Assembly: GCA_042573625.1 (NCBI GenBank)
Contig: JBHPCZ010000001.1
Span: forward strand, 12,859-76,858
Origin: Thermodesulfobacteriota bacterium
Lineage (GTDB): Bacteria; Desulfobacterota; Desulfobacteria; Desulfobacterales; UBA11574
Length of the DNA: 64,000 nucleotides
Direction of reading: 5' to 3'
Within the stretch, counting starts at the first letter, position 1. Every line of letters begins with the position of its first letter. Positions 51,950 to 63,383 of this stretch are shown in pieces. The position numbers and the translations under genes are program-made. Under the pieces are notes generated by a model. The model saw only the letters and a list, made by a program, of their open reading frames with translations, searched no databases and had not been told where the DNA came from.

Positions 51950-52372
51950 ATGGCGTTAGAATCGAGCAATCATCAGGAGACGAGAAAGCCTTCTCGGAAG
52001 AGAGGTTGTATCATTTTGGTGCTTATCGGAGTGGCACTGGTTTTCTTTGCCTTCTGGCAGATTGGCGAGCCTGCCAGACGGGCGAGGAAAATACACAAAA
52101 ATATCCATCCCGGTATGAATTTTAAAGATGTTGAGAGTTTTATGTCAGGCAGGTACTACTGCGATTATCAGGTCATGGCAGATGGCGAATGGAAGTCGAT
52201 ACAAAGAGTAGAATTCATCAAGCTGCTGGAGCTTGGTACAAAAAATTCGTTTCCCTCTAAACGCCTCTGGCTAACGTTTCTGGGAATGGCACCAGGTCGC
52301 GTGTCCTTTTTTGTAGAATTCGATAGTAGCGGTCGTGTTTCCGAAGTTACAGATCCCCATGGATGGGATTAA
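51950..52372 (+). CDS. hypothetical membrane-anchored protein
   Basis: 140-aa ORF with one N-terminal TM segment (CIILVLIGVALVFFAFW). Confidence 0.5.
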   Translation: MALESSNHQETRKPSRKRGCIILVLIGVALVFFAFWQIGEPARRARKIHKNIHPGMNFKDVESFMSGRYYCDYQVMADGEWKSIQRVEFIKLLELGTKNSFPSKRLWLTFLGMAPGRVSFFVEFDSSGRVSEVTDPHGWD

Positions 52373-52478
52373 CCAAAACAGACTTAACGCCGCAACGGAA
52401 CACTGCTCAACGACCCCTGTCCGTTGAGTTCGCTGGTTAAAAATAACCCTTTTACAAAGCAATCTCTTATAATTTGTT

Positions 52479-52865
52479 ATGGCTATCAAGCTTGAATTTT
52501 GTAATGTGATTGTTCCGGTCGACACAATCCGGGAGAAACTCGGAAATGGAACTTTCGAAAGTCGGTTTGCAAGAATTACGTCCGTCAACTGGCATGACGG
52601 TCATCTCTTCAGGGATGGATGCATGAACCCATGGGATCTTGAAGAAACGCTCGATGAATGGGAAAGTTTGGGGTTTGAACTTCTGACGATAATCGCTGGA
52701 AAAAAGCACTGGAAGGATCTTTGCGTAGTTAACTCGGGGCATGGTCCTTCATATCCATGTGAGTGGATTGAATACGATCCTATAAAGAACATCGTTTGGG
52801 TGAAGGGACGTGAACCTGGAGTTGCTGTAGGGCCGGCTGACCGCAAGGTTGCCGGAGAAGTTTAG
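52479..52865 (+). CDS. hypothetical protein
   Basis: 128-aa ORF with no recognised motif. Confidence 0.45.
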   Translation: MAIKLEFCNVIVPVDTIREKLGNGTFESRFARITSVNWHDGHLFRDGCMNPWDLEETLDEWESLGFELLTIIAGKKHWKDLCVVNSGHGPSYPCEWIEYDPIKNIVWVKGREPGVAVGPADRKVAGEV

Positions 52866-52880
52866 AACGCAGGGAGTTAA

Positions 52881-53252
52881 TTGGCAGATTTATATGGGAA
52901 GATGAAAATGGGGAAAATAGAAAAACAAATAAAATCGGAAATAAAGCAGTTGCCATTTATGCTTGGCAAGTTGATAGGTGGTATTATGGCCGTTATCGGT
53001 TTCCCAGGGGTGATCATTGTTACTAGAAAATCAAACGCGACGTTTTCCGATATGTTACCATATTTTCTTTTGGGGATAATTGGTGTTGGTATTTTTTTAA
53101 TAACTTCCAAGCTGTTTGCAAAACGACTGAATGAAAGTACTCATTCCGCACCAACCTCAAAAGAAAAAAGACAAACCAGTATTATATCTTGGATGATACT
53201 TTTGATCTTTGCAGCAATTTTCATATTAATTACATTCATTATAACCATGTAA
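52881..53252 (+). CDS. hypothetical membrane protein
   Basis: 123-aa ORF (TTG start; ATG alternatives a few codons in) with three hydrophobic segments. Confidence 0.45.
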   Translation: MADLYGKMKMGKIEKQIKSEIKQLPFMLGKLIGGIMAVIGFPGVIIVTRKSNATFSDMLPYFLLGIIGVGIFLITSKLFAKRLNESTHSAPTSKEKRQTSIISWMILLIFAAIFILITFIITM

Positions 53253-53262
53253 GAATGCGCTT

Positions 53263-55209
53263 TCACTCAGTCTCATCAACCCGTCGAAGACGATAGAGCA
53301 CGTTGGAGCCGAATTTTTTGGCCAACTCAACGGTTCCCAGGTAATCGCAGGCGAAGTCAGGATTGCCCGAAGCCATAAGTAAACATGCAAATTGCTCACT
53401 CACGAAAACGGCACCAGCCGCTGTTATGGGTTCGATACGGGCGGCTTGATTGACGTGGGTGCCGTAATAATTGTTTCGTTGAAGGATCGGATCTTCCGCT
53501 TCGAACACGGGGCCGGCATGCATTCCGATGCGGACATTGGTATCTTCGGGCAATCCCAATGCCTTCCAGTCCGTATTTAAAACCATGTCGCGCAAACTCA
53601 AGCTAAAATCAGCTGCAGCCGAAATTTCATCAAAAACAAGAAACAGACCATCTCCCCAGGTGTTGCAAAAATTAGGTTTTGTTTTATTGATGGCAATGAT
53701 GTTGGCCACCCGTCCCAAAAAATCGACAAAAAATGAAGGTGCATTTTCTTCGCCCAGCTTACTGAAACCGACCACATCCCCAAATAACATGGCTTTGATC
53801 TGACGAGCGATTTGAATTTTACGACCGCCTCGTTCATGCTTCGATTGCGAAAGCGTATTCACCGAAACTGCTGGTTTTTCTACGGCTACGGGCTTTCCAT
53901 GGAATTTCCGCCGGATCGCCTCAAGGTCCACTATTGCTGTGCCGCGACCTTGCCGCTGCCATGCCTGGACATTGTCGACCGTACCTCCGACTTTGCCCGG
54001 GGCAGCAGAATCCATTAAAGCGATCATTACTGGTTCGACTTCAAGCTGGCCCGCCCGGAACAGCGCCATCCCTTGAATTAAATCCCCTGTATATTGGAAC
54101 AGGATATCGTCATGAAGATACCCCTCTTCTGTTGCATAATGAACATTCGTCGCTCGAGACATTACATATTCAAACCGTTTTACCCAGTGTTCTCCGGCAA
54201 AAGCCACACTGGTCTGGATGAAGTCCTCTTTTCTAAAGGGAATTAATATATGGATTTCCGCCTCTCGTTCCAGCATAGCTTCAACAAACAAGATATCCGC
54301 GCCGCATGCTGCCGAGGAGTATCCAAAACCGGCATTGATCCTTCTGAGAGTGTTCGCAATTTCGTCTTTGACGACGCCTTCTATTATCGAAGGAAATCGG
54401 GGGGGATGTCTTTCTGGTGTGTCGATCATATGGCCTGTAAACGTCACAACGTTGGGGATATCAAGTGCCTTAAAGATGGATTCGTGTACTTCTATGTGCA
54501 TTGACAACATCTTGATCTGACGTCGCATCGTCGCAATGTCCCCATAACGATCATGAGCGAGCAACACGGCCTCTCTGTACCACCCAGCCGCCTCTCTTGG
54601 GCGGTCAAGAAGAAGACAGGCCTCGCCGACGGTGGCCCGAAACCAATAATCATTGGTGGGGATTGCATGCTTTTGATCCATACAGATATTGTAGACACGA
54701 CGGGCAATTTCCTTTGCTTTGTTTTTTTTTCCGGCGAGCATGGTCATGCTGGCAGCGTTGATTCCAGGAAAGTAATCATAAGAGGTTTCAAAAGCACGTT
54801 GGTAGTAAGTCGTGCTTTTTTCAACCGCTGCCCGGCGCGCCTTGCCTTCAGAGAGCTTGGTATAACGATCTTTGGCAATCCGTCCTGCCAGGCTTAAGGT
54901 GTCTGCGTAAACCGGGTTTTTCTGGTCGATCCGTTCTAAAAGCCTGCCCACCAAATTAGCGGCAGAACGGGTTGAACCGCCTCTTGCGAGCGCAAGCGCT
55001 GCCCAGTACATCAAATCGATATGTTCTGGAAAAAGAGCGAGACCTTCCTTTAAAATGTCGAAAGACAATAAAGGATGGCCGCATTTAATGGCCTTTTTTC
55101 CGAATTGAAGGAAGCGATCGGCGTTATTTCCCCAACTATTGGGCTCGCGCGCTTTCCAAGCGTAGATAATCTCTTCAAGTGTATTGGGCGTCTCTTTCTT
55201 TTCCATCAT
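53263..55209 (-). CDS. TPR/DUF4071-like + SLOG-like Rossmannoid + class III adenylate/guanylate cyclase fusion protein
   Basis: C-terminus has the cyclase homology domain: MLFGDVVGFSKL, NTWGDGLFLVF, RIGMHAGPV and GTHVNQAARIE. The middle region (FTGHMIDTPERHPPRFP...GYSSAACGADILFVEAMLEREAEIHILIPF) is LOG/SLOG-like. The N-terminus is made of TPR-like helical repeats. Confidence 0.8.
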   Translation of the reverse strand: MMEKKETPNTLEEIIYAWKAREPNSWGNNADRFLQFGKKAIKCGHPLLSFDILKEGLALFPEHIDLMYWAALALARGGSTRSAANLVGRLLERIDQKNPVYADTLSLAGRIAKDRYTKLSEGKARRAAVEKSTTYYQRAFETSYDYFPGINAASMTMLAGKKNKAKEIARRVYNICMDQKHAIPTNDYWFRATVGEACLLLDRPREAAGWYREAVLLAHDRYGDIATMRRQIKMLSMHIEVHESIFKALDIPNVVTFTGHMIDTPERHPPRFPSIIEGVVKDEIANTLRRINAGFGYSSAACGADILFVEAMLEREAEIHILIPFRKEDFIQTSVAFAGEHWVKRFEYVMSRATNVHYATEEGYLHDDILFQYTGDLIQGMALFRAGQLEVEPVMIALMDSAAPGKVGGTVDNVQAWQRQGRGTAIVDLEAIRRKFHGKPVAVEKPAVSVNTLSQSKHERGGRKIQIARQIKAMLFGDVVGFSKLGEENAPSFFVDFLGRVANIIAINKTKPNFCNTWGDGLFLVFDEISAAADFSLSLRDMVLNTDWKALGLPEDTNVRIGMHAGPVFEAEDPILQRNNYYGTHVNQAARIEPITAAGAVFVSEQFACLLMASGNPDFACDYLGTVELAKKFGSNVLYRLRRVDETE

Positions 55210-55286
55210 TACACATGCTTTCTCCGTACTCAGAAAATTAGTGGATATGTGTGATGTTATCCGGTTGACATGGTGAAATCATCGAA

Positions 55287-56306
55287 TCATTCCCGTATCA
55301 AGTTGAGAACATGCTGTACAATTTTTTGGGCACCGTCGGGACGGATGAGCGCCATAAGTCGCGAACTTATACTGCTTACATTACACTTAAGCGTCGCAAG
55401 AAACATATCGGAATTGACTTCTGACTGCCGTGCGACAAATCCCAGCCCCTGATCGGCAAAATGCTTTGCATTGTAGTATTGGTGATCCCGAGCTGCATAG
55501 GGATAAGGGATAAAAAACGCCGGCAAGCCATTGGCTGCCATTTCCCAGAGCGTTCCGGCCCCGGCGCGTGTCACGGCAAAGTCGGCTTCCACCATCCGCG
55601 ACGCGAGATCATGGTCGAATGCAAAACAATCGGCGTCTACATTCATCGCTTCGTAGGCGGTTTTAACGCGCTTGAATTCGGGTGCGCCGGTTTGATGCGT
55701 AATGGTAATTCCCCTGCGATCAAGAGCAGGTGCTACGGCAAGCGCAAAATTGTTAATGAAACTGGCGCCCTGGCTTCCGCCAAGAAAAAGCACACGCTGC
55801 ACGTTGCTGCGTTGCCGACGCCCATCGAAGAATGTCATATCGACTGGATAGTCAAGTACCGGGGAGCGCCTGTCATAGGAACTGAAAAATTCCTCGGCAT
55901 AAGGCATCATAATTCGATGGAGATAACTTATCGATACATTGTGCTCATGGATAAAAAGTGAAATGCGCCGCACTGCGGCGGCAAAACTGGCAGCCGCCGC
56001 CGGGTATCCTCCAACGCTCAGTACGGCTTTTACCTTGTGCTGCTTTAAAATACTGACGACCGTGATCGTTTCTCTGGCAATCATTGCAAGGGAAACAATC
56101 CTGCCGAAAAGCCTGCGATTCACCACTCCCCTCGTATTCAGAAAATAACAAGCGGCAAAGCCTGCCTCTTCGGCGAACCATTTTCGCTCCAAACCGTTAA
56201 TAGAGCCAATAAAAATCGGATCAACGCCCTCTTCGATAAACGCATATTTAAGTGCGCGTATGCCACTCAAATGTCCACCCGTGCCACCGCCGGTCAGAAC
56301 AATCAT
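55287..56306 (-). CDS. MurG-like GT28 glycosyltransferase paralog
   Basis: MIVLTGGGTGGHLSG (G-loop), HEHN, and a C-terminal AVTRAGAGTLWEMAANGLPAFFIPYPYAARDHQYYNA like MurG, but outside a dcw cluster. Confidence 0.75.
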   Translation of the reverse strand: MIVLTGGGTGGHLSGIRALKYAFIEEGVDPIFIGSINGLERKWFAEEAGFAACYFLNTRGVVNRRLFGRIVSLAMIARETITVVSILKQHKVKAVLSVGGYPAAAASFAAAVRRISLFIHEHNVSISYLHRIMMPYAEEFFSSYDRRSPVLDYPVDMTFFDGRRQRSNVQRVLFLGGSQGASFINNFALAVAPALDRRGITITHQTGAPEFKRVKTAYEAMNVDADCFAFDHDLASRMVEADFAVTRAGAGTLWEMAANGLPAFFIPYPYAARDHQYYNAKHFADQGLGFVARQSEVNSDMFLATLKCNVSSISSRLMALIRPDGAQKIVQHVLNLIRE

Positions 56307-57145
56307 CGATCGGAGTCTCCTTTGACTGAGCCATTATCCTTAATGTGAGCGTGGGTTGCGGCAGTGTCTGAAGCAGGAAACCACTCATCACACCAATTTC
56401 GAAGACGGTAATAGGCGAGAGCGGTCCACTCCTGAACGCCCAGTTCTAGTCGTTCAAGCTCCCCGACCAAATTGAAACCAAGTTGAATTTTATAGGCACC
56501 CGGTGTCCGAAAGTCGACCGGGTAGGGAATGACTGGCCAACCCGCTTTGCGAAAAACGCCGACGGCGCGTGGAATATGCCAGGCTGAAGTTACAAGAACC
56601 CATTGCTGTCCCCTGACAGGATTGATCAACCGGCGCGCAAAAACCGCATTTTCGTATGTATTGCGGGCCTTTGACTCGAGTACTACGCGCCTGAAGTCGA
56701 CACCCATGGCGCTAAAAAAACTTTTTGCAGGGACCGCGTCACCAAGCCCCTTTGATCCAAGGCTGTTCTTTCCGCCGGCATAGACGATCCGTGCCTTAGG
56801 AAACCTCCGTGCGAGGTGAAGGAGGGTGAAAATGCGTTCTCCGGAATCACCCAAAATCAATTGGCGGCGGGCCAAAATCAGTTTCTGATCAAAAGCACCG
56901 CCGAGCACAATGATACCGTCAATATGCTCGGGAAGCGTTTCTGGAACCGGAAAGCGATTTTCAAGTGGCACAAGGCTCCAGGTTCCGAGAGGAAAAACAG
57001 CAAGGCATACAAGGATCGCTACGACCAATATGATGAGCTTTTGCCCCAAGTGTCGCCATCGTCCAAACAGCATGATCGTGCCCGCAACCAGCAGTATCAA
57101 TAACGCATTGCCGGGTTTAATGAGAAACCATACTTTTTTAACCAT
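56303..57145 (-). CDS. YdcF/ElyC (DUF218) family protein
   Basis: N-terminal TM segments, IIVLGG, VYAGG and NTYENA motifs. 4-nt overlap with the MurG-like gene. Confidence 0.75.
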   Translation of the reverse strand: MVKKVWFLIKPGNALLILLVAGTIMLFGRWRHLGQKLIILVVAILVCLAVFPLGTWSLVPLENRFPVPETLPEHIDGIIVLGGAFDQKLILARRQLILGDSGERIFTLLHLARRFPKARIVYAGGKNSLGSKGLGDAVPAKSFFSAMGVDFRRVVLESKARNTYENAVFARRLINPVRGQQWVLVTSAWHIPRAVGVFRKAGWPVIPYPVDFRTPGAYKIQLGFNLVGELERLELGVQEWTALAYYRLRNWCDEWFPASDTAATHAHIKDNGSVKGDSDR

Positions 57146-57232
57146 TTCTCGTCATTTATACATTCTGCGTTCAGGTTAGTTTTATCGGCCAGGCTAAGCC
57201 TTTACTGCATTATACATAAGCCTGAGAACAGG

Positions 57233-58123
57233 TTACTTCGTGGGTTCACGCATTCGAATAACCGCCGCGCCTGTCTCGGTTTCAATAAATTCTCCGGTTA
57301 GAACACTAAACTCTTGCAACCAGGAATGCACGATTTTACGTTCATCTTGACGATCGGCGTCATCCAAAAAGACCACCGCGCCCTCATTCAATCGATCCAG
57401 AAGGAGCGGAATTGCCGGGTAGCGGGCCATGGGTTGTAGGCCTCCGGGCGGACCGTCGATGATTAACATATCAATGCCACCTATTTTTTCCAGCTTGGAA
57501 ATATCGTACCAACGCCAATTTCGGCCGTTTATTTCGTAATCCTGCAAGGGTGCATATAGGACTTCAACGAACTTTTGCAACCCGTGATCGACCAAGTATC
57601 TTTGTGAGCGTTCCACATGGTTTTTTGCATGTTCCAAAGTGATGAGTTTTCCTTGGCCCATTTTTTTGATGAAATACCCAACAACGATAGTCGTAACGCC
57701 ACTGCCCAATTCGACAATGACATTGGGCTTGTTTTTTAAAATCGTTGAGACGATGAGTCTGCTAAAGTCCGGTGAAGCTGCGAAAAGCCTCATCGGAGGA
57801 AGCGGCGCCTCTAACTTAATTAGCGCCAGTAAAGACAATAACGATTCAATTTGTCTGTAATCTTTTATCGCAATTCGGGGTGTTAACGTATGGAGCCTGT
57901 GGATGATTTGAAGGAGAAGAAAACCTAAAACAGACGTAGCGATCCATATTGTCAGCAGTAATGTGACCGGCCGGCCGGCGTTCAATTCCCAGGCAATCAT
58001 AATAATAAAGGGGACGCACACCACTGACTCAATGAGCAGATCCATTTTAACATGCTTCAAAGCAGGTATCCATTTTATATTTTTACCCAATCTATATTTC
58101 CCTTCACCATTGTCACCAGGCAT
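57233..58123 (-). CDS. membrane-anchored class I SAM-dependent methyltransferase
   Basis: Two N-terminal TM segments. VVELGSGVTTIVVG (motif I) and MLIIDGPPG...VVFLDDADR. Its start lies 12 nt after the TIR-WD40 stop. Confidence 0.7.
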   Translation of the reverse strand: MPGDNGEGKYRLGKNIKWIPALKHVKMDLLIESVVCVPFIIMIAWELNAGRPVTLLLTIWIATSVLGFLLLQIIHRLHTLTPRIAIKDYRQIESLLSLLALIKLEAPLPPMRLFAASPDFSRLIVSTILKNKPNVIVELGSGVTTIVVGYFIKKMGQGKLITLEHAKNHVERSQRYLVDHGLQKFVEVLYAPLQDYEINGRNWRWYDISKLEKIGGIDMLIIDGPPGGLQPMARYPAIPLLLDRLNEGAVVFLDDADRQDERKIVHSWLQEFSVLTGEFIETETGAAVIRMREPTK

Positions 58124-58135
58124 CGTTGCACAAAG

Positions 58136-60946
58136 CTAACGAGGGGAAAATGGCACGGCAACGGTCCCGACAAGATGGAACCCCGTCAGTTGTTCAATTT
58201 CCTTGATAATTTGATCGACCCGATCGCGTCGATAAGGTGGATTATCAAGATAGTGTCGCAGCAAAGCGCCAGGATCTTTCACATCGATTTGGTTTCTATG
58301 CGGCCAAAAATCGCTGATGCGCCAGAGTCTGATCGCAGCATCCGTTCCGCCCGAAGCCAGTACCGTTCCGTCTGGATGAAAGTCCAGGTGGATTGCGTAG
58401 CGGTCGTGACCGCTGAGCCGTGCAATCAACCGATGTGTCTGCATATCAAAAAGACGAATCGTATGCCGGTCATTGCTGGGTGTTCCCGAGGCCAGCAAAA
58501 GACCGTCAGGACTGAAAGTGATATGCCAAACCTCATAGGCATGATGCGCAAGCAGCGTCCCTGTCTGTTTGTATGTTCCCATATCCCAAAGTCTGATCAG
58601 GCGATCCCACCCGCCGGTGGCCAATACCTTTCCATCGGGGCTGAATGCCAGCGTCCGAACGTGCTTTTTGTGACCTGTCAGATTTGCCAGCAGATTGCCC
58701 GTCGCAACTTCCCAGACATACACGGTGGAGTCATAACTCACCGATGCGAGACGACGGCCATCAGGGCTGAAGCCTACCGCGCTGACTTCGCCGTTGTGTC
58801 CTTCAAAGGTTCTGACTTTATCCAGTGTCGGTATCTTCCACAGTTTAACTTTATGATCCCAGCCGGCAGATGCCAGTAATCGTCCGTCCGGATGAAAACT
58901 GAGCCCCATTACGTAGTCGTCATGTCCTTTTACCCACGCGATTTGTTCGTGCGTTGCAACGTCCCACAATCGAATGGTATTGTCCCGGCTGCTCGAAGCA
59001 ACAATTTTACCATCCGGACTGAAAATCACGGCTCTAACAGAATCTTGGTGCCCATTTAACGTGTCGAGTGTTTCCCCGGTTGCCGTGTCCCATAATTTTA
59101 TGGCAGCGTCATCCGCACAGGAAACCATGAGTTTACCATCCGGACTGAAATCCACGCCGCGAATAACATCTTCATGGCCTGTCAGGGTGGCAAAGTTCTG
59201 GCGTGCTCCGATGCGCCATAACTTGAGTGTTTTGTCGGTACTTCCCGACACGATGTGTCTTCCATCAGGATGGAAAGCAACCGACTGAATTTCATCAGCG
59301 TGACCTGTGAGCGTGGCAAGTTCTTGTCGAGTGCTGACTTCCCAGATCTTGATCGTGCGGTCCCGGCTGGCAGCAGCAAGCACTTGACCGTCAGGACTAA
59401 AAGCTATATCGAAAACGGCAAGTTGGTGACCACCGAGCGAGGCGACTTCTTTACGGGTTTTTAAATCCCAAATTTTGGTACTGCTCGCTCTGTTGGCGGC
59501 CGCAAGAAATTTTCCATCCGGGCTGAAGGCGACGGCCATGATCGGATGACGATAGGTTGCAAGCACGTCGATGGGCTCCCGATCTTTCACGCTCCATAGT
59601 CTCAACGTATTGTCCTTGCCGCCGGAAGCGATTTGCTTGCCGTCGGGACTGAGCGCAACACTGTGCACGCCGTTTGCGTGTCCCGTCAGCGTTGCGATTT
59701 CATTGCCTGAAACGAGATTCCACAGCTTGATGCTGTAATCCCAACTGCCGGTTATCAATAGTTGAGAATCAGGACCAAATGAGATGGACGAAACTTCTCC
59801 TTTATGTCCCTTGAGAAGTTTCAGCAACCGTAAGGAGTGTGCGTCCCAGATCCGGACGACCCTGTCGGCACCTCCGGATGCCATAAGCCGGCCGTCCGGG
59901 CTGAAGGCAACTGCAAGTACGGGGCCTCTGTGTCCCTCAAGAGATTTAAGCGGTCTTCCTTGTGGCATTTCCCAGCGACGAACGATCCCGTCCTCACTCC
60001 CGGAAGCGATCACCGCGCCATCGGTACTGAATGCAACACCCCTTGAAAAATTGGCGCCGGTTATCGTTTGGGCAAGTAGCGCCGGTGGAGAAAGGGAAGA
60101 AATAAGATCGATTTCAAGGGGATCCTGTTCCGCCAACAGGCTGTATCGCAATGAGTGCGCAGCATATAAAGTTGCGGCCGCTTCTTGACGGGCTCCGATT
60201 GCATCTTTAGTTTGCTGGATCATAAGTTCAGCGAGTTGCCGGTAGCGTGCCCGTGCACTCTTCGCAGTTTCCAAATGCCCCTTATACCAAACACTGCCAA
60301 TAATGGAAAGAATCGTAATTGTTGCCAATGTCACTTGAACGCGTCGCCAGAACTGTCGACGCTTTTCGCGTTGTTTGAGTTCATCATAGTTAACGCCCAT
60401 CAATCCTGCCAGCATTTTCAGCTTGGCATTCAGCTTGCCATCGCCTTGGGGGCGTATATCCGCTGCAATCGGTTCTGTTCTTTTTTCAGTGATTTCGCCA
60501 GATGAGTTTACGTGAAAGCGGATGCCTTGAGGAAAGCACTCTAAAAGTCCGCTCTCGGGCGTATCCGTGGCATTGGGTTCGCCATCGATGATCAGACACA
60601 AAACGCGATCCTCACGCCCCAATGATTTGAACTTTATGATTTCCTGATTTACCCAGTGTGAGGCAGCGGAATTTGCCGAACAGATCACCACAAGATAGCG
60701 TGACTTTTCCAAGGCATCATCGATGTTTCGGCCAAGATCAGCTGAGCCGGGCAGTTCTTCACGGTCGCGGAAAACCGGAAATAGACGTGAGGGCAAAGGA
60801 CCATTTCGGGACATTCGGCCGACAAGGCGTTTGGGAACACGGTAAGTCTCAATCGCCTTGTGTAGCCAATCACCCCATTTGCTGTCTTTATGGCTGTAGG
60901 AGATAAAGGCCCAATACTTGTATTCGGGCGTAAGTTTACTCTCCAA
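58136..60946 (-). CDS. TIR domain - transmembrane helix - 14x WD40 repeat protein
   Basis: N-terminal TIR (WAFISYSHKD...VVICSANSAASHWVNQEI with the SxWxxxE catalytic-Glu context). One TM segment (VQVTLATITILSIIGSVWY). Fourteen GH...(V/I)xFSPDG...AS.S.D.T(I/V)(K/R)LW units. TTG start after a G-rich SD. Confidence 0.9.
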   Translation of the reverse strand: MESKLTPEYKYWAFISYSHKDSKWGDWLHKAIETYRVPKRLVGRMSRNGPLPSRLFPVFRDREELPGSADLGRNIDDALEKSRYLVVICSANSAASHWVNQEIIKFKSLGREDRVLCLIIDGEPNATDTPESGLLECFPQGIRFHVNSSGEITEKRTEPIAADIRPQGDGKLNAKLKMLAGLMGVNYDELKQREKRRQFWRRVQVTLATITILSIIGSVWYKGHLETAKSARARYRQLAELMIQQTKDAIGARQEAAATLYAAHSLRYSLLAEQDPLEIDLISSLSPPALLAQTITGANFSRGVAFSTDGAVIASGSEDGIVRRWEMPQGRPLKSLEGHRGPVLAVAFSPDGRLMASGGADRVVRIWDAHSLRLLKLLKGHKGEVSSISFGPDSQLLITGSWDYSIKLWNLVSGNEIATLTGHANGVHSVALSPDGKQIASGGKDNTLRLWSVKDREPIDVLATYRHPIMAVAFSPDGKFLAAANRASSTKIWDLKTRKEVASLGGHQLAVFDIAFSPDGQVLAAASRDRTIKIWEVSTRQELATLTGHADEIQSVAFHPDGRHIVSGSTDKTLKLWRIGARQNFATLTGHEDVIRGVDFSPDGKLMVSCADDAAIKLWDTATGETLDTLNGHQDSVRAVIFSPDGKIVASSSRDNTIRLWDVATHEQIAWVKGHDDYVMGLSFHPDGRLLASAGWDHKVKLWKIPTLDKVRTFEGHNGEVSAVGFSPDGRRLASVSYDSTVYVWEVATGNLLANLTGHKKHVRTLAFSPDGKVLATGGWDRLIRLWDMGTYKQTGTLLAHHAYEVWHITFSPDGLLLASGTPSNDRHTIRLFDMQTHRLIARLSGHDRYAIHLDFHPDGTVLASGGTDAAIRLWRISDFWPHRNQIDVKDPGALLRHYLDNPPYRRDRVDQIIKEIEQLTGFHLVGTVAVPFSPR

Positions 60947-61299
60947 GCGAGGCCCCCCGTGTGGTAGATGCGTAATTACAAGGATAACTGTATGAAATTA
61001 CAGTGTGAATGCAAGTATTGAGATTTTTTGGGCAACTTTAATGGTATCTCACTCACCGATCTTATTGCTGATCAAAATGATTACAAAACCTGGAATCTAA
61101 ATAATGAATCAGATATTTGAAAAAATTATGGTGTCAGACCTGCAAACAAACAGTAGTGAAAAGCGTTTTATGCACATCTCATAATTGTTTAAAAAAAAGG
61201 AGCTTTCCCTTTGAAAAGGTCTTCGAGCAAAAAATCAAAAAGATACGGAGAAGAGCCGTGATAGTGGAATTAGGGTACCTGAAGTTGTCAGTATTTTCA

Positions 61300-61464
61300 A
61301 GTAAATTCAAGGCCAACCTGAGGAATTTTTTAATGATCCAGACAGAAATCAGAGATAGCGGTGATCAATACCTTTCTGAACTGATGAATACAGAGTTGAG
61401 CCATTTGCTCGGCCGTGAGCGTTATGAGTGCTGTATGCTTCCGACAAGATTCCCGCAAATCTGA
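61300..61464 (+). pseudogene. IS256/Mutator-family transposase N-terminal remnant
   Basis: YLSELMNTELSHLLGRERYE resembles the conserved ...E.E...LG..RYER region. The reading frame ends shortly after and no catalytic domain follows. Confidence 0.45.
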
Positions 61465-61994
61465 ATCCAGCGGTTGTTTCAAAGTCAACTATCACCCACA
61501 AAGCGGGTGGTTTGAATTTTCGGCCATAGGCCGGAAAGGCAAAAGCAAGTCGGTGCCTTAAAGTTGAACTTGCGTCCGGGTGCGGAGCACCCGGTTCTTT
61601 TGCAAGAATAAATTCGATCAGAACAATTGAGCTTTGGATTCGTATAAATATTTGATTTTTTTTTTGACAGCGTCGCAACAATACGATTAAATACATACCT
61701 GACAGATTCAAAAAAACGAAATGTTCTTTTCCAGCGGCCCCAACCGCGTTTTCAATGCGTGTGACGGCAAGACCTTCATGGACGCCTGAAATTATCCCGT
61801 CAAGGCACCGATGCCAAACCGGCAAGGCATTCCAAGAAACGATATTGCTTCAGCCCTTGTTTCCCCGCATAAAGGAGATTGATATGATTTTCAAAGGATT
61901 CGAGATAAGCGTTGGTTTCCTTATTCGATTTCCCGGAATTTTCCTTAAAATTCCGGTGCCTTTGTGCTCCGGCGGTTTAAGGGGTGCCGATGGA

Positions 61995-63383
61995 TTGAAG
62001 AGCGGTCTTTACAGGAAATCAATTAAAATCGTTGCCATGTGGATCCTTTGCTGGCTTTTTCTGTGGCCGCCTGCGCCGGGAATGGCCGAACCGCCGACCG
62101 AAGTCTCCGAACTGAGCCTTTCACAGGCGATTACGACGGCAATCGATAAAAATCCCAACCTGGAAGCCGTGCGCTTTCAGGTTAAGGCATCAGACGAACG
62201 GATCACCCAGGCCAAATCTACGTTTTTCCCCAATGTACAGTTTGTCGAAAACTACAGCCACACCACCAATCCCATGTGGGCATTTGGAACCAAGCTGAAC
62301 CAGGGGGCTATCTCTTCGCCGGATTTCGACCCGAACCAATTGAACGACCCGGACCCCATCGACAACTTTGCTTCCACCCTGTCGGTCTCCTGGCCTTTGT
62401 ACGACAGCGGCCAGACCTGGTACGGCTGGCAACAGGCCAAATTGAATCGCGAAGTGACCGACCTTGTATATTCCCGAACCCGCCAGCAGATCATTGCACG
62501 CACCATAACAGCCTACCTGGAGGTGCTTCTCTCCGATGAAAACCTGAAGGTGCTGGAACAAACTCTTGAGACTGCGCGAATCCATCTAAAGATGGTCAAC
62601 TCACGTTTTGAAAGCGGTTTTGTCGTCAAAAGCGATCTGCTCAGGGCCCGTGTTCACATCGCGGATCTGGAGCAGCAGCGACTTCAGGCCACAAGCCAGA
62701 CGCAGGTCGCCCGGTGCATGTTGAATGTTGCCATGGGAGAACCGGGAGACCGGCGCTATCAATTCACGACACCTCTGGAAAAGGGAGCCGAGGTGCCGGA
62801 CGACCTGGACGTCTGGATTGAAACCGCCCTTTCAAATCGACCGGAGCTGAAACAGCTGGAACAAAAACTGGTCATTGCCCAACAGGAGATCGACAAGTCG
62901 CAGGCCGCCCATCTTCCATCCTTCAGCCTGTTAGGAAACTACGAGGTAAACACGGAGGATTTTCAGGACGGCCACGACAATTACACCGTCGGCGCACTGG
63001 TATCTTTAAATCTTTTTTCCGGCGGCGGCCTTTCCGCCAAAACCGCTGAGGCACGACACGCGCTGGAACAGGTTAAATCCATGAATCAGGCGCTGGCTCA
63101 ACAAATCTGCGGGGAAACGCGCCAGGCTTTTTATAATGTGCGCAGTTCCTGGCAGCGCATCGAGGTGTCCGAAGCTGCGGTCGATCAGGCTGCCGAGTCT
63201 CTGCGCATCGTCCGAAACCGCTACGAAAGCGGCCTCTTTACCATTATTGACCTTCTCGACGCGGAGGTCGTCCTCCAACAGGCGAAAACCAATTATCTAA
63301 AGGCTGTTCACGACCACGAGGCTGCAGCTGTTCAGCTTCTACTGGCAGCAGGCGTTATTAGTGAAAACGGCAGGAGCCGCTGA
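61995..63383 (+). CDS. TolC-family outer-membrane efflux protein
   Basis: Two TolC-type helical repeat halves (LSLSQAITTAIDKNPNLEA..., ALSNRPELKQLE...). The start is uncertain (TTG 61995 or ATG 62037). The ORF-track start at 61755 adds a non-signal extension. Confidence 0.8.
   Translation: MKSGLYRKSIKIVAMWILCWLFLWPPAPGMAEPPTEVSELSLSQAITTAIDKNPNLEAVRFQVKASDERITQAKSTFFPNVQFVENYSHTTNPMWAFGTKLNQGAISSPDFDPNQLNDPDPIDNFASTLSVSWPLYDSGQTWYGWQQAKLNREVTDLVYSRTRQQIIARTITAYLEVLLSDENLKVLEQTLETARIHLKMVNSRFESGFVVKSDLLRARVHIADLEQQRLQATSQTQVARCMLNVAMGEPGDRRYQFTTPLEKGAEVPDDLDVWIETALSNRPELKQLEQKLVIAQQEIDKSQAAHLPSFSLLGNYEVNTEDFQDGHDNYTVGALVSLNLFSGGGLSAKTAEARHALEQVKSMNQALAQQICGETRQAFYNVRSSWQRIEVSEAAVDQAAESLRIVRNRYESGLFTIIDLLDAEVVLQQAKTNYLKAVHDHEAAAVQLLLAAGVISENGRSR

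Follow-up and report, generated by a model that had tools for sequence, protein, structure and literature searches.

The window analysed here, a stretch of 64,000 nucleotides of contig JBHPCZ010000001.1 of a Thermodesulfobacteriota bacterium, carries a gene for a TIR-domain protein that is predicted to span the membrane once and, 2.9 kb downstream on the same strand, a gene for a 648-aa protein composed of a TPR-S region, a predicted SLOG-fold domain and a class III nucleotide cyclase domain. The TIR protein belongs to a widespread, uncharacterised family of membrane-anchored TIR proteins, composed of a constant N-terminus and a variable C-terminus, whose genes are recurrently linked to those of proteins with a SLOG domain. 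Coordinates of the features are collected in Table 1.

The membrane-anchored TIR protein

The open reading frame (ORF) of the TIR gene is preceded, 7 nt upstream of its TTG start codon, by a GGGGGG run constituting a G-rich ribosome-binding site, and encodes (from the N- to the C-terminus) a TIR domain, one transmembrane (TM) helix and, after a helical linker, 14 WD40 repeats. Comparison with the 93%-identical ortholog of locus L084 gave a ratio of non-synonymous to synonymous substitution rates (dN/dS) of 0.25 for the whole gene and 0.14 for the TIR domain, which argues that the gene is functional and under purifying selection.

Scanning of the N-terminal 300 residues alone against Pfam returned TIR_2 (E=3.7e-13; 50.5 bits, cutoff 28), as well as ThsB_TIR (PF08937; E=1.5e-8) and TIR (E=1.5e-5), both above their curated cutoffs; the scan of the whole protein returned the 14 WD40 stretches. 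The TIR domain contains the motif FISYSH (aa 14-19), a BB-loop-like FRDREEL (aa 59-65) and SHWVNQE (aa 96-102); a sequence-only reading of this DNA had proposed an N-terminal TIR domain, with a glutamate at the catalytic position in the last of these motifs. In a search of PDB sequences, E102 pairs with the Glu of flax L6 (SKWCLMEL) and Arabidopsis AtTIR (SSWCLDEL), a position known as that of the catalytic Glu of plant TIR NADases (L6 E135, RUN1 E100, SARM1 E642). No exchange of this residue occurs among the 66 aligned sequences, nor in any of the 92 relatives derived from the loci described below, each of which also has an aromatic residue four positions before the Glu, and both parts of the proposal have thus been borne out. 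The invariant columns of the domain are S16, Y17, S18, H19, F59, R60, D61, E64, L65, S96 and E102. The same search placed a Glu of the non-catalytic Toll-like receptor (TLR) TLR2 at the position of E102, and the Glu of the SxWxxxE motif is therefore necessary but not sufficient for NADase competence; of the NADase-competent effector that had been proposed, the residue is confirmed, but the Glu alone is no proof of the activity.

An AlphaFold2 (AF2) model of the N-terminal part of the protein, built on 65 homologs (predicted local distance difference test, pLDDT, 91.2), comprises a TIR fold, an extension made of a conserved beta-hairpin and a helix, and one long helix (aa 187-251). Its best structural matches in Foldseek are TIR domains of Toll-like receptors (TLR1 and TLR15), followed by those of SPARTA TIR-APAZ, L6, RUN1, RPP1 and AbTir; a structural model had been suggested as a check on the TIR domain, and the one obtained does lead to NADase TIR domains (SPARTA, RUN1, L6 and AbTir). 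The domain is thus a member of the TIR superfamily with a catalytic-type Glu, for which NAD+ cleavage is predicted. The extension that follows it (strands at aa 144-163 and a helix at aa 170-183, pLDDT >95) is reached by a further set of invariant residues: G122, E123, E136, F138, A161, D163, R165 and G181.

The only strongly hydrophobic stretch of the protein (aa 203-221; Kyte-Doolittle mean 1.59, a borderline value) is part of the long helix of the model. At the corresponding distance from the TIR domain, relatives also carry a hydrophobic segment, with a Kyte-Doolittle mean of at least 1.6 in 82 of 88 (median 2.2). The family medians of the net charge flanking this segment are +4 on the N-terminal and +1 on the C-terminal side, and the N-terminal flank is the more positive one in 82 of 88 relatives. 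Pfam searches of relatives revealed PEGA, FG-GAP and PQQ_2/BamB-like domains after the TM helix in place of WD40. PEGA, FG-GAP and BamB-like propellers are typical exported domains, the TIR domain lacks a signal peptide, and NAD+, its substrate, is cytoplasmic. From the flanking charges, the exported domains, the missing signal peptide and the location of NAD+ we infer that the TIR domain lies in the cytoplasm and the repeats outside the membrane. A single TM helix followed by a helical region, with sensor and TIR domain on opposite sides of the membrane, was also what the sequence-only reading had put forward, and the data from relatives agree with it.

The WD40 repeats number 14 in a 42-residue register (mean pairwise identity 35%), the count given previously, and can reasonably be expected to form two 7-bladed propellers. 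No STAND NTPase was found among the Pfam matches of the TIR protein, as had likewise been noted, and a helical linker makes up the 80 residues that separate the TM helix from the WD40 region.

Table 1. Features of the window discussed in the text.
Feature	Position	Strand	Description	Evidence
TIR-TM-WD40 gene	58136..60946	-	936 aa, TTG start	ORF list, Pfam, L084 ortholog
TIR domain	60572..60922	-	aa ~9-125	Pfam, AF2 model, Foldseek, invariant columns
Glu102 codon	60641..60643	-	catalytic-Glu position of NAD-cleaving TIR domains	alignment and invariance
Conserved extension after TIR domain	60377..60571	-	aa 126-190; DGEP..ECFP..EPIAADxR..LKLLAGLLGV, then polybasic stretch	
Single TM helix	60284..60340	-	aa 203-221, predicted N-in/C-out	hydropathy, relatives
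Helical linker, TM to repeats	60047..60283	-	aa 222-300	AF2 helices to 251, 255-271, 278-285
14 WD40 repeats	58307..60046	-	aa ~301-880, predicted extracytoplasmic	Pfam E=2.4e-155, 14 stretches
C-terminal tail after WD40 region	58136-58306	-	56 aa	
Three intervening genes, TIR to cyclase	55287..58123	-		Pfam
Membrane Methyltransf_24 gene	57233-58123	-	296 aa, N-terminal hydrophobic helices	
DUF218 gene	56303-57145	-		
GT28/MurG-like glycosyltransferase gene	55287-56306	-		
TPR-S/SLOG/class III cyclase gene, predicted partner	53263..55209	-	648 aa	Pfam, neighbour cluster, L084 order
TPR-S/ASK1-like TPR region	54607..55038	-	aa 58-201	PF20308 E=9.2e-17, PF13281 E=5.5e-13
SLOG-fold domain	53860..54462	-	aa ~250-450	AF2 pLDDT 85.7, conserved FTGHMID and AACGADILF
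Class III nucleotide cyclase domain	53290..53814	-	aa ~466-640	Pfam Guanylate_cyc, PDB profile matches, invariant columns
TolC-like OEP gene	61755-63383		divergent from TIR gene	

The TIR-TM family and its SLOG-domain neighbours

The TIR-TM module (about 200-220 aa) shares 50-68% identity with hundreds of proteins across distant phyla and was found in at least 584 loci in a scan of one genome per species. Among the matches listed, carriers belong to Verrucomicrobiota, Acidobacteriota, Alpha-, Beta- and Gammaproteobacteria, Magnetococcales, Methylomirabilia, Planctomycetota, Lentisphaerae and other groups; cultured genera are Rhodanobacter, Dyella, Mesorhizobium and Rhizomicrobium, with Rhizomicrobium electricum DSM 21034, Dyella halodurans DHOG02, Rhodanobacter thiooxydans LCS2 and Mesorhizobium escarrei as named carriers. 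In a profile search of 1.8 billion cluster representatives, the best 150 matches (all E<=1e-126, most of them 900-1400 aa long) aligned from their own N-terminus and spanned most or all of the profile, which runs from the TIR domain through the TM helix to the first repeat; because this profile (A1) contains WD40 columns, its total of 16,020 proteins at E<=1e-30 is inflated by WD40-only proteins. Four types of C-terminus were distinguished: (i) 12-16 WD40 repeats, a common type, often in proteins of about 940-1080 aa like that of the window, (ii) TPR repeats, typical of gammaproteobacterial forms of about 740 aa, (iii) PEGA, FG-GAP and PQQ_2/BamB-like propellers, and (iv) a 400-aa region without an assigned family, in Acidobacteriota.

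Nine loci (L025, L030, L037, L054, L063, L067, L072, L075 and L076) contain two or three TIR-TM matches, mostly tandem full-length paralogs; in L025 and L037 there is in addition a third match, which is truncated or fragmentary. Divergence is seen among the TIR domains of the paralogs, with some secondary copies only 35-45% identical to the window protein, and this suggests a small receptor repertoire. In L003, a gene of the CinA family (PF02464, NMN deamidases; L003:1379-1807) and the start of a TIR-TM-WD40 homolog have 4 nt in common, a single instance that could be a link to NAD salvage.

For a census of neighbours, ORFs were called in 83 related loci and the window (84 loci) and clustered by BLAST in an unsupervised manner. 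Apart from the TIR proteins, widely recurrent neighbours fell into just two families: (i) TPR-S-SLOG-class III cyclase proteins, some with an additional RyR domain, in 18 loci including the window, and (ii) SLOG-SLATT proteins of about 600 aa, in which DUF4231/SLATT_1/SLATT_3 membrane domains come after an N-terminal domain, in 10 gammaproteobacterial loci whose TIR proteins are of the TPR type. A SLOG partner lies within 8 kb of the TIR-TM gene in 28 of the 84 loci, mostly adjacent and on the same strand; of the 51 loci that extend 3 kb or more to either side of the TIR-TM gene, 23 have one. Hidden Markov models (HMMs) of the middle domain of the cyclase proteins and of the N-terminal domain of the SLATT proteins match each other (E between 1e-5 and 7e-9), and a joint HMM of the shared domain recovered 27 of the 28 partners but matched none of the remaining neighbouring ORFs. 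On profile and model evidence, the two families thus have a common SLOG sensor-type domain with interchangeable outputs, an arrangement that by analogy is a hallmark of nucleotide-signalling conflict systems. Since the family is linked to SLOG proteins, the TIR protein is probably more than a lone NAD-depleting effector. The taxonomic distribution and the neighbourhood had been named as checks by the sequence-only reading, and both turned out broad and recurrent, respectively; the 648-aa gene was left unconnected to the TIR gene there, and its linkage was found here.

Pfam matches of the 648-aa protein include TPR-S (PF20308; 61.9 bits, cutoff 27.6), likewise found in each of the five other cyclase-type neighbours that were scanned, MAP3K_TRAF_bd and Guanylate_cyc, and its TPR-S region has a profile match to chain 5ulm of ASK1 (MAP3K5; E=4.3e-6). 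The model of the middle domain retrieves YpsA as the top Foldseek match (2nx2; E=7.5e-8), together with DprA, ShosA, the Moco carrier protein and LOG; its predicted fold is that of SLOG domains of the nucleotide-sensor type, and ligand binding is predicted. The third domain has profile matches to guanylyl and adenylyl cyclases in PDB. It retains the residues that we take to be the metal-binding aspartates (D478/D520) and the Asn and Arg of the transition state (N587/R591), and is probably active. The presumed base-specifying pair is N516/N580, the former invariant and the latter nearly invariant among 56 homologs. Adenylyl cyclases have Lys/Asp (for ATP) and guanylyl cyclases Glu/Cys (for GTP) as specificity pairs, and because Asn/Asn is neither, the product nucleotide is not predictable.

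Further domains were observed in partners and neighbours. All three longer (about 740-780 aa) cyclase partners scanned (of L006, L008 and L017) have an N-terminal RyR domain (PF02026), which the 648-aa protein lacks, and TrkA_N+RyR neighbours occur in two TIR-TM loci (L066:3414-5276 and L025:13927-15600); RyR domains thus recur around the TIR-TM family. A neighbour in L029 combines DUF4071 with TPR-S and, like the TrkA_N+RyR proteins, agrees with a link to nucleotide-signalling systems. In L028, from a metagenome-assembled genome of Salinisphaerales, a gene for a Crp/Fnr-type transcription factor binding cyclic mononucleotides (cNMPs) lies between the SLOG-cyclase and TIR-TM-WD40 genes (L028:6666-7361, minus strand), which hints that the cNMP output can feed transcription.

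Reciprocal examination of three cyclase homologs showed that L084 repeats the five-gene string of the window, from the TIR gene to the cyclase gene (93-94% identical), that L086 has a TIR-TM-TPR gene 13 nt downstream of the cyclase-protein gene, and that L085 has no TIR gene within 8 kb. Among 80 metagenome loci of cyclase homologs (L087-L166), 10 carry the TIR-TM family, and 8 of the 24 with adequate flanks do so. An nSTAND1-TPR gene is found directly upstream of the cyclase in 15 of these loci. Seven cyclase loci contain a gene for a soluble TIR_2-DUF4062 protein; four arrangements were inspected, and in these it lies immediately downstream of the cyclase and is followed by nSTAND1-TPR in at least three (three-gene sets). 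L110, L113 and L162 are among the loci with a three-gene set or with nSTAND1-TPR alone. PADLOC v2 recognised none of the TPR-S-SLOG-cyclase, TIR_2+DUF4062 or nSTAND1-TPR sets. The cyclase family thus occurs in TIR/STAND conflict-type contexts, as its TIR_2-DUF4062 and nSTAND1-TPR neighbours show, and in the version found in the window the TM helix and the predicted outside repeats of the TIR protein replace the cytoplasmic STAND-TPR sensor.

A candidate relay, its rivals and the surrounding genes

We propose that the TIR-TM-WD40 protein is a single-pass membrane receptor, whose cytoplasmic and catalytically competent TIR domain is tethered through the TM helix and a helical stalk to the WD40 region outside, a proposal for which and against which we see about equal weight. 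In a Thoeris-like relay, which to us has an even chance of being correct, an extracytoplasmic cue would lead to TIR clustering and an NAD-derived signal, received by a SLOG/TPR-S-gated cyclase. A periplasmic or envelope ligand on the WD40 region would gather the cytoplasmic TIR domains; these would cleave NAD+, releasing an ADP-ribose-derived nucleotide of the kind of the isomers of cyclic ADP-ribose (cADPR); the SLOG and/or the TPR-S domain of the 648-aa protein would take it up; and the bound nucleotide would activate the class III cyclase, whose cyclic mononucleotide would constitute a second-tier output. Elsewhere in the family, this SLOG sensor is joined to SLATT domains, which would act as membrane pores in place of the cyclase. 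The relay may serve defence against phages or envelope threats, or else general signalling.

The model is put forward because of published precedent, namely the SLOG domain of ThsA, Thoeris of types VII and VIII and the association of TPR-S with TIR proteins. This last association was reportedly predicted by Burroughs and Aravind in 2020. The SLOG domain of ThsA senses 3'cADPR. Type VII (TIR and SLATT) and type VIII Thoeris (TIR and a TPR-CMP-hydrolase) both use cADPR (bioRxiv 10.64898/2025.12.03.692087).

Several observations weigh against the relay. The pairing is facultative in both directions, since 28 of the 51 well-flanked TIR-TM loci have no SLOG partner within 8 kb and two thirds of the cyclase loci lack the TIR-TM family; no partner is present on the 13.5-kb contig of L032, which among the matches listed is the closest relative outside L084 (65% identity over the N-terminal 300 residues). 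In the window itself the pair is not adjacent, being separated by three unrelated-looking genes, and co-transcription of the two genes is putative, a promoter and terminator scan of 52800-61800 having given counts at the level of shuffled sequence. The cyclase is an unusual 'effector', and the one candidate cNMP receptor observed near a pair is that of L028, neither the window nor the other loci checked having any. As to topology, the TM segment of the window protein is only borderline hydrophobic, with symmetric flanking charges (+4/+4), bacterial WD40 and TPR domains are mostly cytoplasmic, and the outside position of the WD40 region is a deduction from the features listed above. Finally, the window is rich in housekeeping genes (pheT, infB and pnp) and is not an obvious defence island. 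PADLOC, which had been suggested as a check, yielded neither strong matches nor system genes for the four genes scanned of the TIR-to-cyclase string; the weak ones are ThsB-like (E ~1e-3) and PycC (the cyclase; E=1.7e-6), and with PADLOC and NCBIfam together only weak TIR-like, PycC and mad2 matches were obtained and no system was recognised.

Of the alternatives, a stand-alone abortive-infection receptor survives best, although we consider it rather unlikely. Outside sensing would oligomerise the TIR domain and cause plain NAD+ depletion and a growth stop, with the cyclase unrelated or loosely co-located. The TIR domain is of the catalytic type, NAD-depleting TIR effectors are well established (TIR-STING, SPARTA and PycTIR), the partner in the window is 2.9 kb away behind three other genes, and such a role is possible because about half of the well-flanked loci (28 of 51) are without a nearby SLOG partner. 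Against this, one SLOG sensor domain is shared by the only two neighbour families that recur among the 84 loci, which come from many phyla, an outcome not readily accounted for by a TIR domain without a signal product, and the TIR domain, 50-68% identical across phyla, is unusually conserved, unlike fast-evolving suicide effectors.

A relay running in the reverse direction, as in Pycsar or Pucsar, with the TPR-S-SLOG-cyclase protein sensing the cue and its cNMP activating a membrane TIR NADase, would fit the existence of cyclase and TIR pairs as known defence systems (Pycsar; Pucsar, preprint 10.64898/2026.08.12.744502), the weak PycC match of the cyclase, and the conserved extension of the TIR protein (aa 126-190), to which no function is assigned. 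We regard it as very improbable, because no cNMP-binding domain was found in aa 1-300 of the TIR protein (Pfam, E<=1), the remainder being WD40, and because the SLOG-SLATT partners of 10 loci have no cyclase and cannot be signal makers; the TIR protein also has a large sensor-type repeat region of its own.

The three intervening genes bear on the last alternative. The successive gaps from the TIR gene through the cyclase gene are 12, 87, -4 and 77 nt, and the membrane methyltransferase gene that had been reported 12 nt behind the TIR gene is indeed there; the linkage itself is not conserved. The Methyltransf_24/DUF218/GT28 string was found only in L084 besides the window and in 0 of 83 other TIR-TM loci. 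It is probably a lineage-specific insertion, its membership in the system is doubtful, and the three genes were rejected as conserved partners, being shared with the 93%-identical L084 alone. Least probable of all, and only marginally credible, is a non-enzymatic scaffold or envelope protein that would use its TIR domain as a TLR-like interaction module and work with the methyltransferase, DUF218 and GT28 products: TLR TIR domains, which also keep the Glu, are the top Foldseek matches, and the string starting 12 nt behind the TIR gene is kept in L084, but it is confined to that near-identical relative, no second TIR protein that could serve as adaptor is encoded nearby, all 92 proteins keep both the Glu and the aromatic residue, and catalysis is indicated by the linkage to domains of the nucleotide-sensor type.

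The corresponding position between the pair is taken in L015 by the gene of an O-methyltransferase from a different, unrelated family (PF00891; L015:6902-7939), which was treated as a coincidence. Upstream of the TIR gene of the window lies a stretch of about 800 bp (60947-61755), AT-rich (GC content about 0.41-0.44) and containing short broken ORFs only. The IS256 remnant that had been placed there was not supported: the ORF at 61117-61464 has no Pfam match, Transposase_mut (PF00872) included, and a tblastn search of 60947-61800 with a PF00872 transposase fragment gave no match, a weak test as the fragment is without the N-terminal region; what is left of the likeness is a resemblance of about 19 residues (LSELMNTELSHLLGRERYE). 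On the other side, the end of the cyclase gene is approached by three convergent small ORFs on the plus strand (51950-53252; 140, 128 and 123 aa); hydrophobic segments occur in two, and none belongs to a Pfam family. Two small genes of L084 (114 and 128 aa) match them in position and orientation downstream of the cyclase.

Comparison with known systems

In the literature searched, which did not extend to Burroughs & Aravind (2020) and Burroughs et al. (2015, NAR), no characterised TIR-TM-WD40 system was found, as the sequence-only reading had supposed. Among the systems closest to the proposed relay is Thoeris, with ThsB TIR and ThsA SIR2-SLOG in type I, TIR and the SLATT protein ThsH in type VII, and TIR and the TPR/CMP-hydrolase ThsI in type VIII. 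As in Thoeris, a catalytic-Glu TIR is linked genetically, in the window and at the level of the family (the 28 loci), to a protein in which nucleotide-sensor domains (the predicted SLOG fold and TPR-S) are joined to an output domain; SLOG-SLATT proteins are the partners of some relatives of the window protein, and the ThsB_TIR match is above its cutoff. Unlike ThsB, which is small and cytoplasmic, the TIR of the window is a 936-aa single-pass membrane protein, probably with WD40 outside; a class III cyclase forms the output domain, and the two genes of the window lie apart. As far as Table S1 of the Thoeris survey was covered, its effector labels do not include a class III cyclase and motifs of the TIR-TM family were not found in it (bioRxiv 10.64898/2025.12.03.692087).

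With TPR-S-centred TIR systems, for which the association of TPR-S proteins with TIR genes is the defining context, the locus shares this association, and its partner protein carries TPR-S (PF20308) and the ASK1-like MAP3K_TRAF_bd region. In the BcTir/BcTpr pair, BcTpr has been reported to be the NAD-consuming enzyme itself (bioRxiv 10.1101/2023.05.26.542521); in the model proposed here it would be the TIR, not the TPR protein, that consumes NAD. Pycsar and Pucsar likewise encode a class III cyclase together with a TIR protein, and the cyclase has weak similarity to PycC. Their effectors are CNBD-TIR or TM proteins, whereas the TIR protein of the window lacks a cNMP-binding domain; its cyclase is fused to TPR-S and SLOG sensors, and the direction of signalling is probably the opposite. 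As in TIR-STAND/NLR proteins (Avs/TIR-NLR and NTPase-WD40 proteins of the APAF-1 type), TIR is combined with superstructure-forming repeats (WD40 or TPR) as the sensor, and relatives of the partner cyclase adjoin nSTAND1-TPR and soluble TIR proteins. Unlike them, the window protein has no NTPase and, where they have the STAND switch, a TM helix, so that sensing would be extracytoplasmic and independent of NTP.

The design also recalls animal Toll-like receptors, which have an outside repeat sensor, one TM helix, a cytoplasmic TIR domain and no NTPase. In contrast to them, the order is inverted, with the TIR domain N-terminal (type II orientation), the sensor consists of WD40 and not of leucine-rich repeats, the TIR domain is probably enzymatic and not an adaptor platform, and homology is limited to that domain. 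The window protein might, as a tentative reading that we hold to be somewhat improbable, be an 'inside-out Toll-like receptor', in which an outside beta-propeller clusters the TIR domain without an NTPase and the SLOG-gated cyclase makes the second messenger; the cue could then conceivably be phage adsorption, envelope damage or a neighbouring cell. To our knowledge, the bacterial TIR immune sensors described so far perceive infection within the cell, and we know of no TIR system for which a two-messenger relay, from an NAD-derived product to a cyclic nucleotide, has been described. If the tentative reading is correct, such two-messenger signalling would exist in hundreds of species of Verrucomicrobiota, Acidobacteriota, Pseudomonadota, Planctomycetota and Thermodesulfobacteriota, an outside sensor with an inside TIR enzyme would extend TIR signalling to surveillance of the envelope and the surroundings, and the protein would be the closest functional analogue of Toll-like receptor topology in bacteria. 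The cyclase partner raises the question of whether TIR signals are relayed into cNMP signalling, and the exchange of cyclase for SLATT on a shared SLOG sensor provides a testable hypothesis on the NAD-derived nucleotide made; experiments are feasible, since the family occurs in cultured strains. To the known Thoeris-like and TPR-S-based TIR signalling, this would add a family of membrane-anchored TIR proteins, of predicted receptor type, linked to putatively SLOG-gated outputs.

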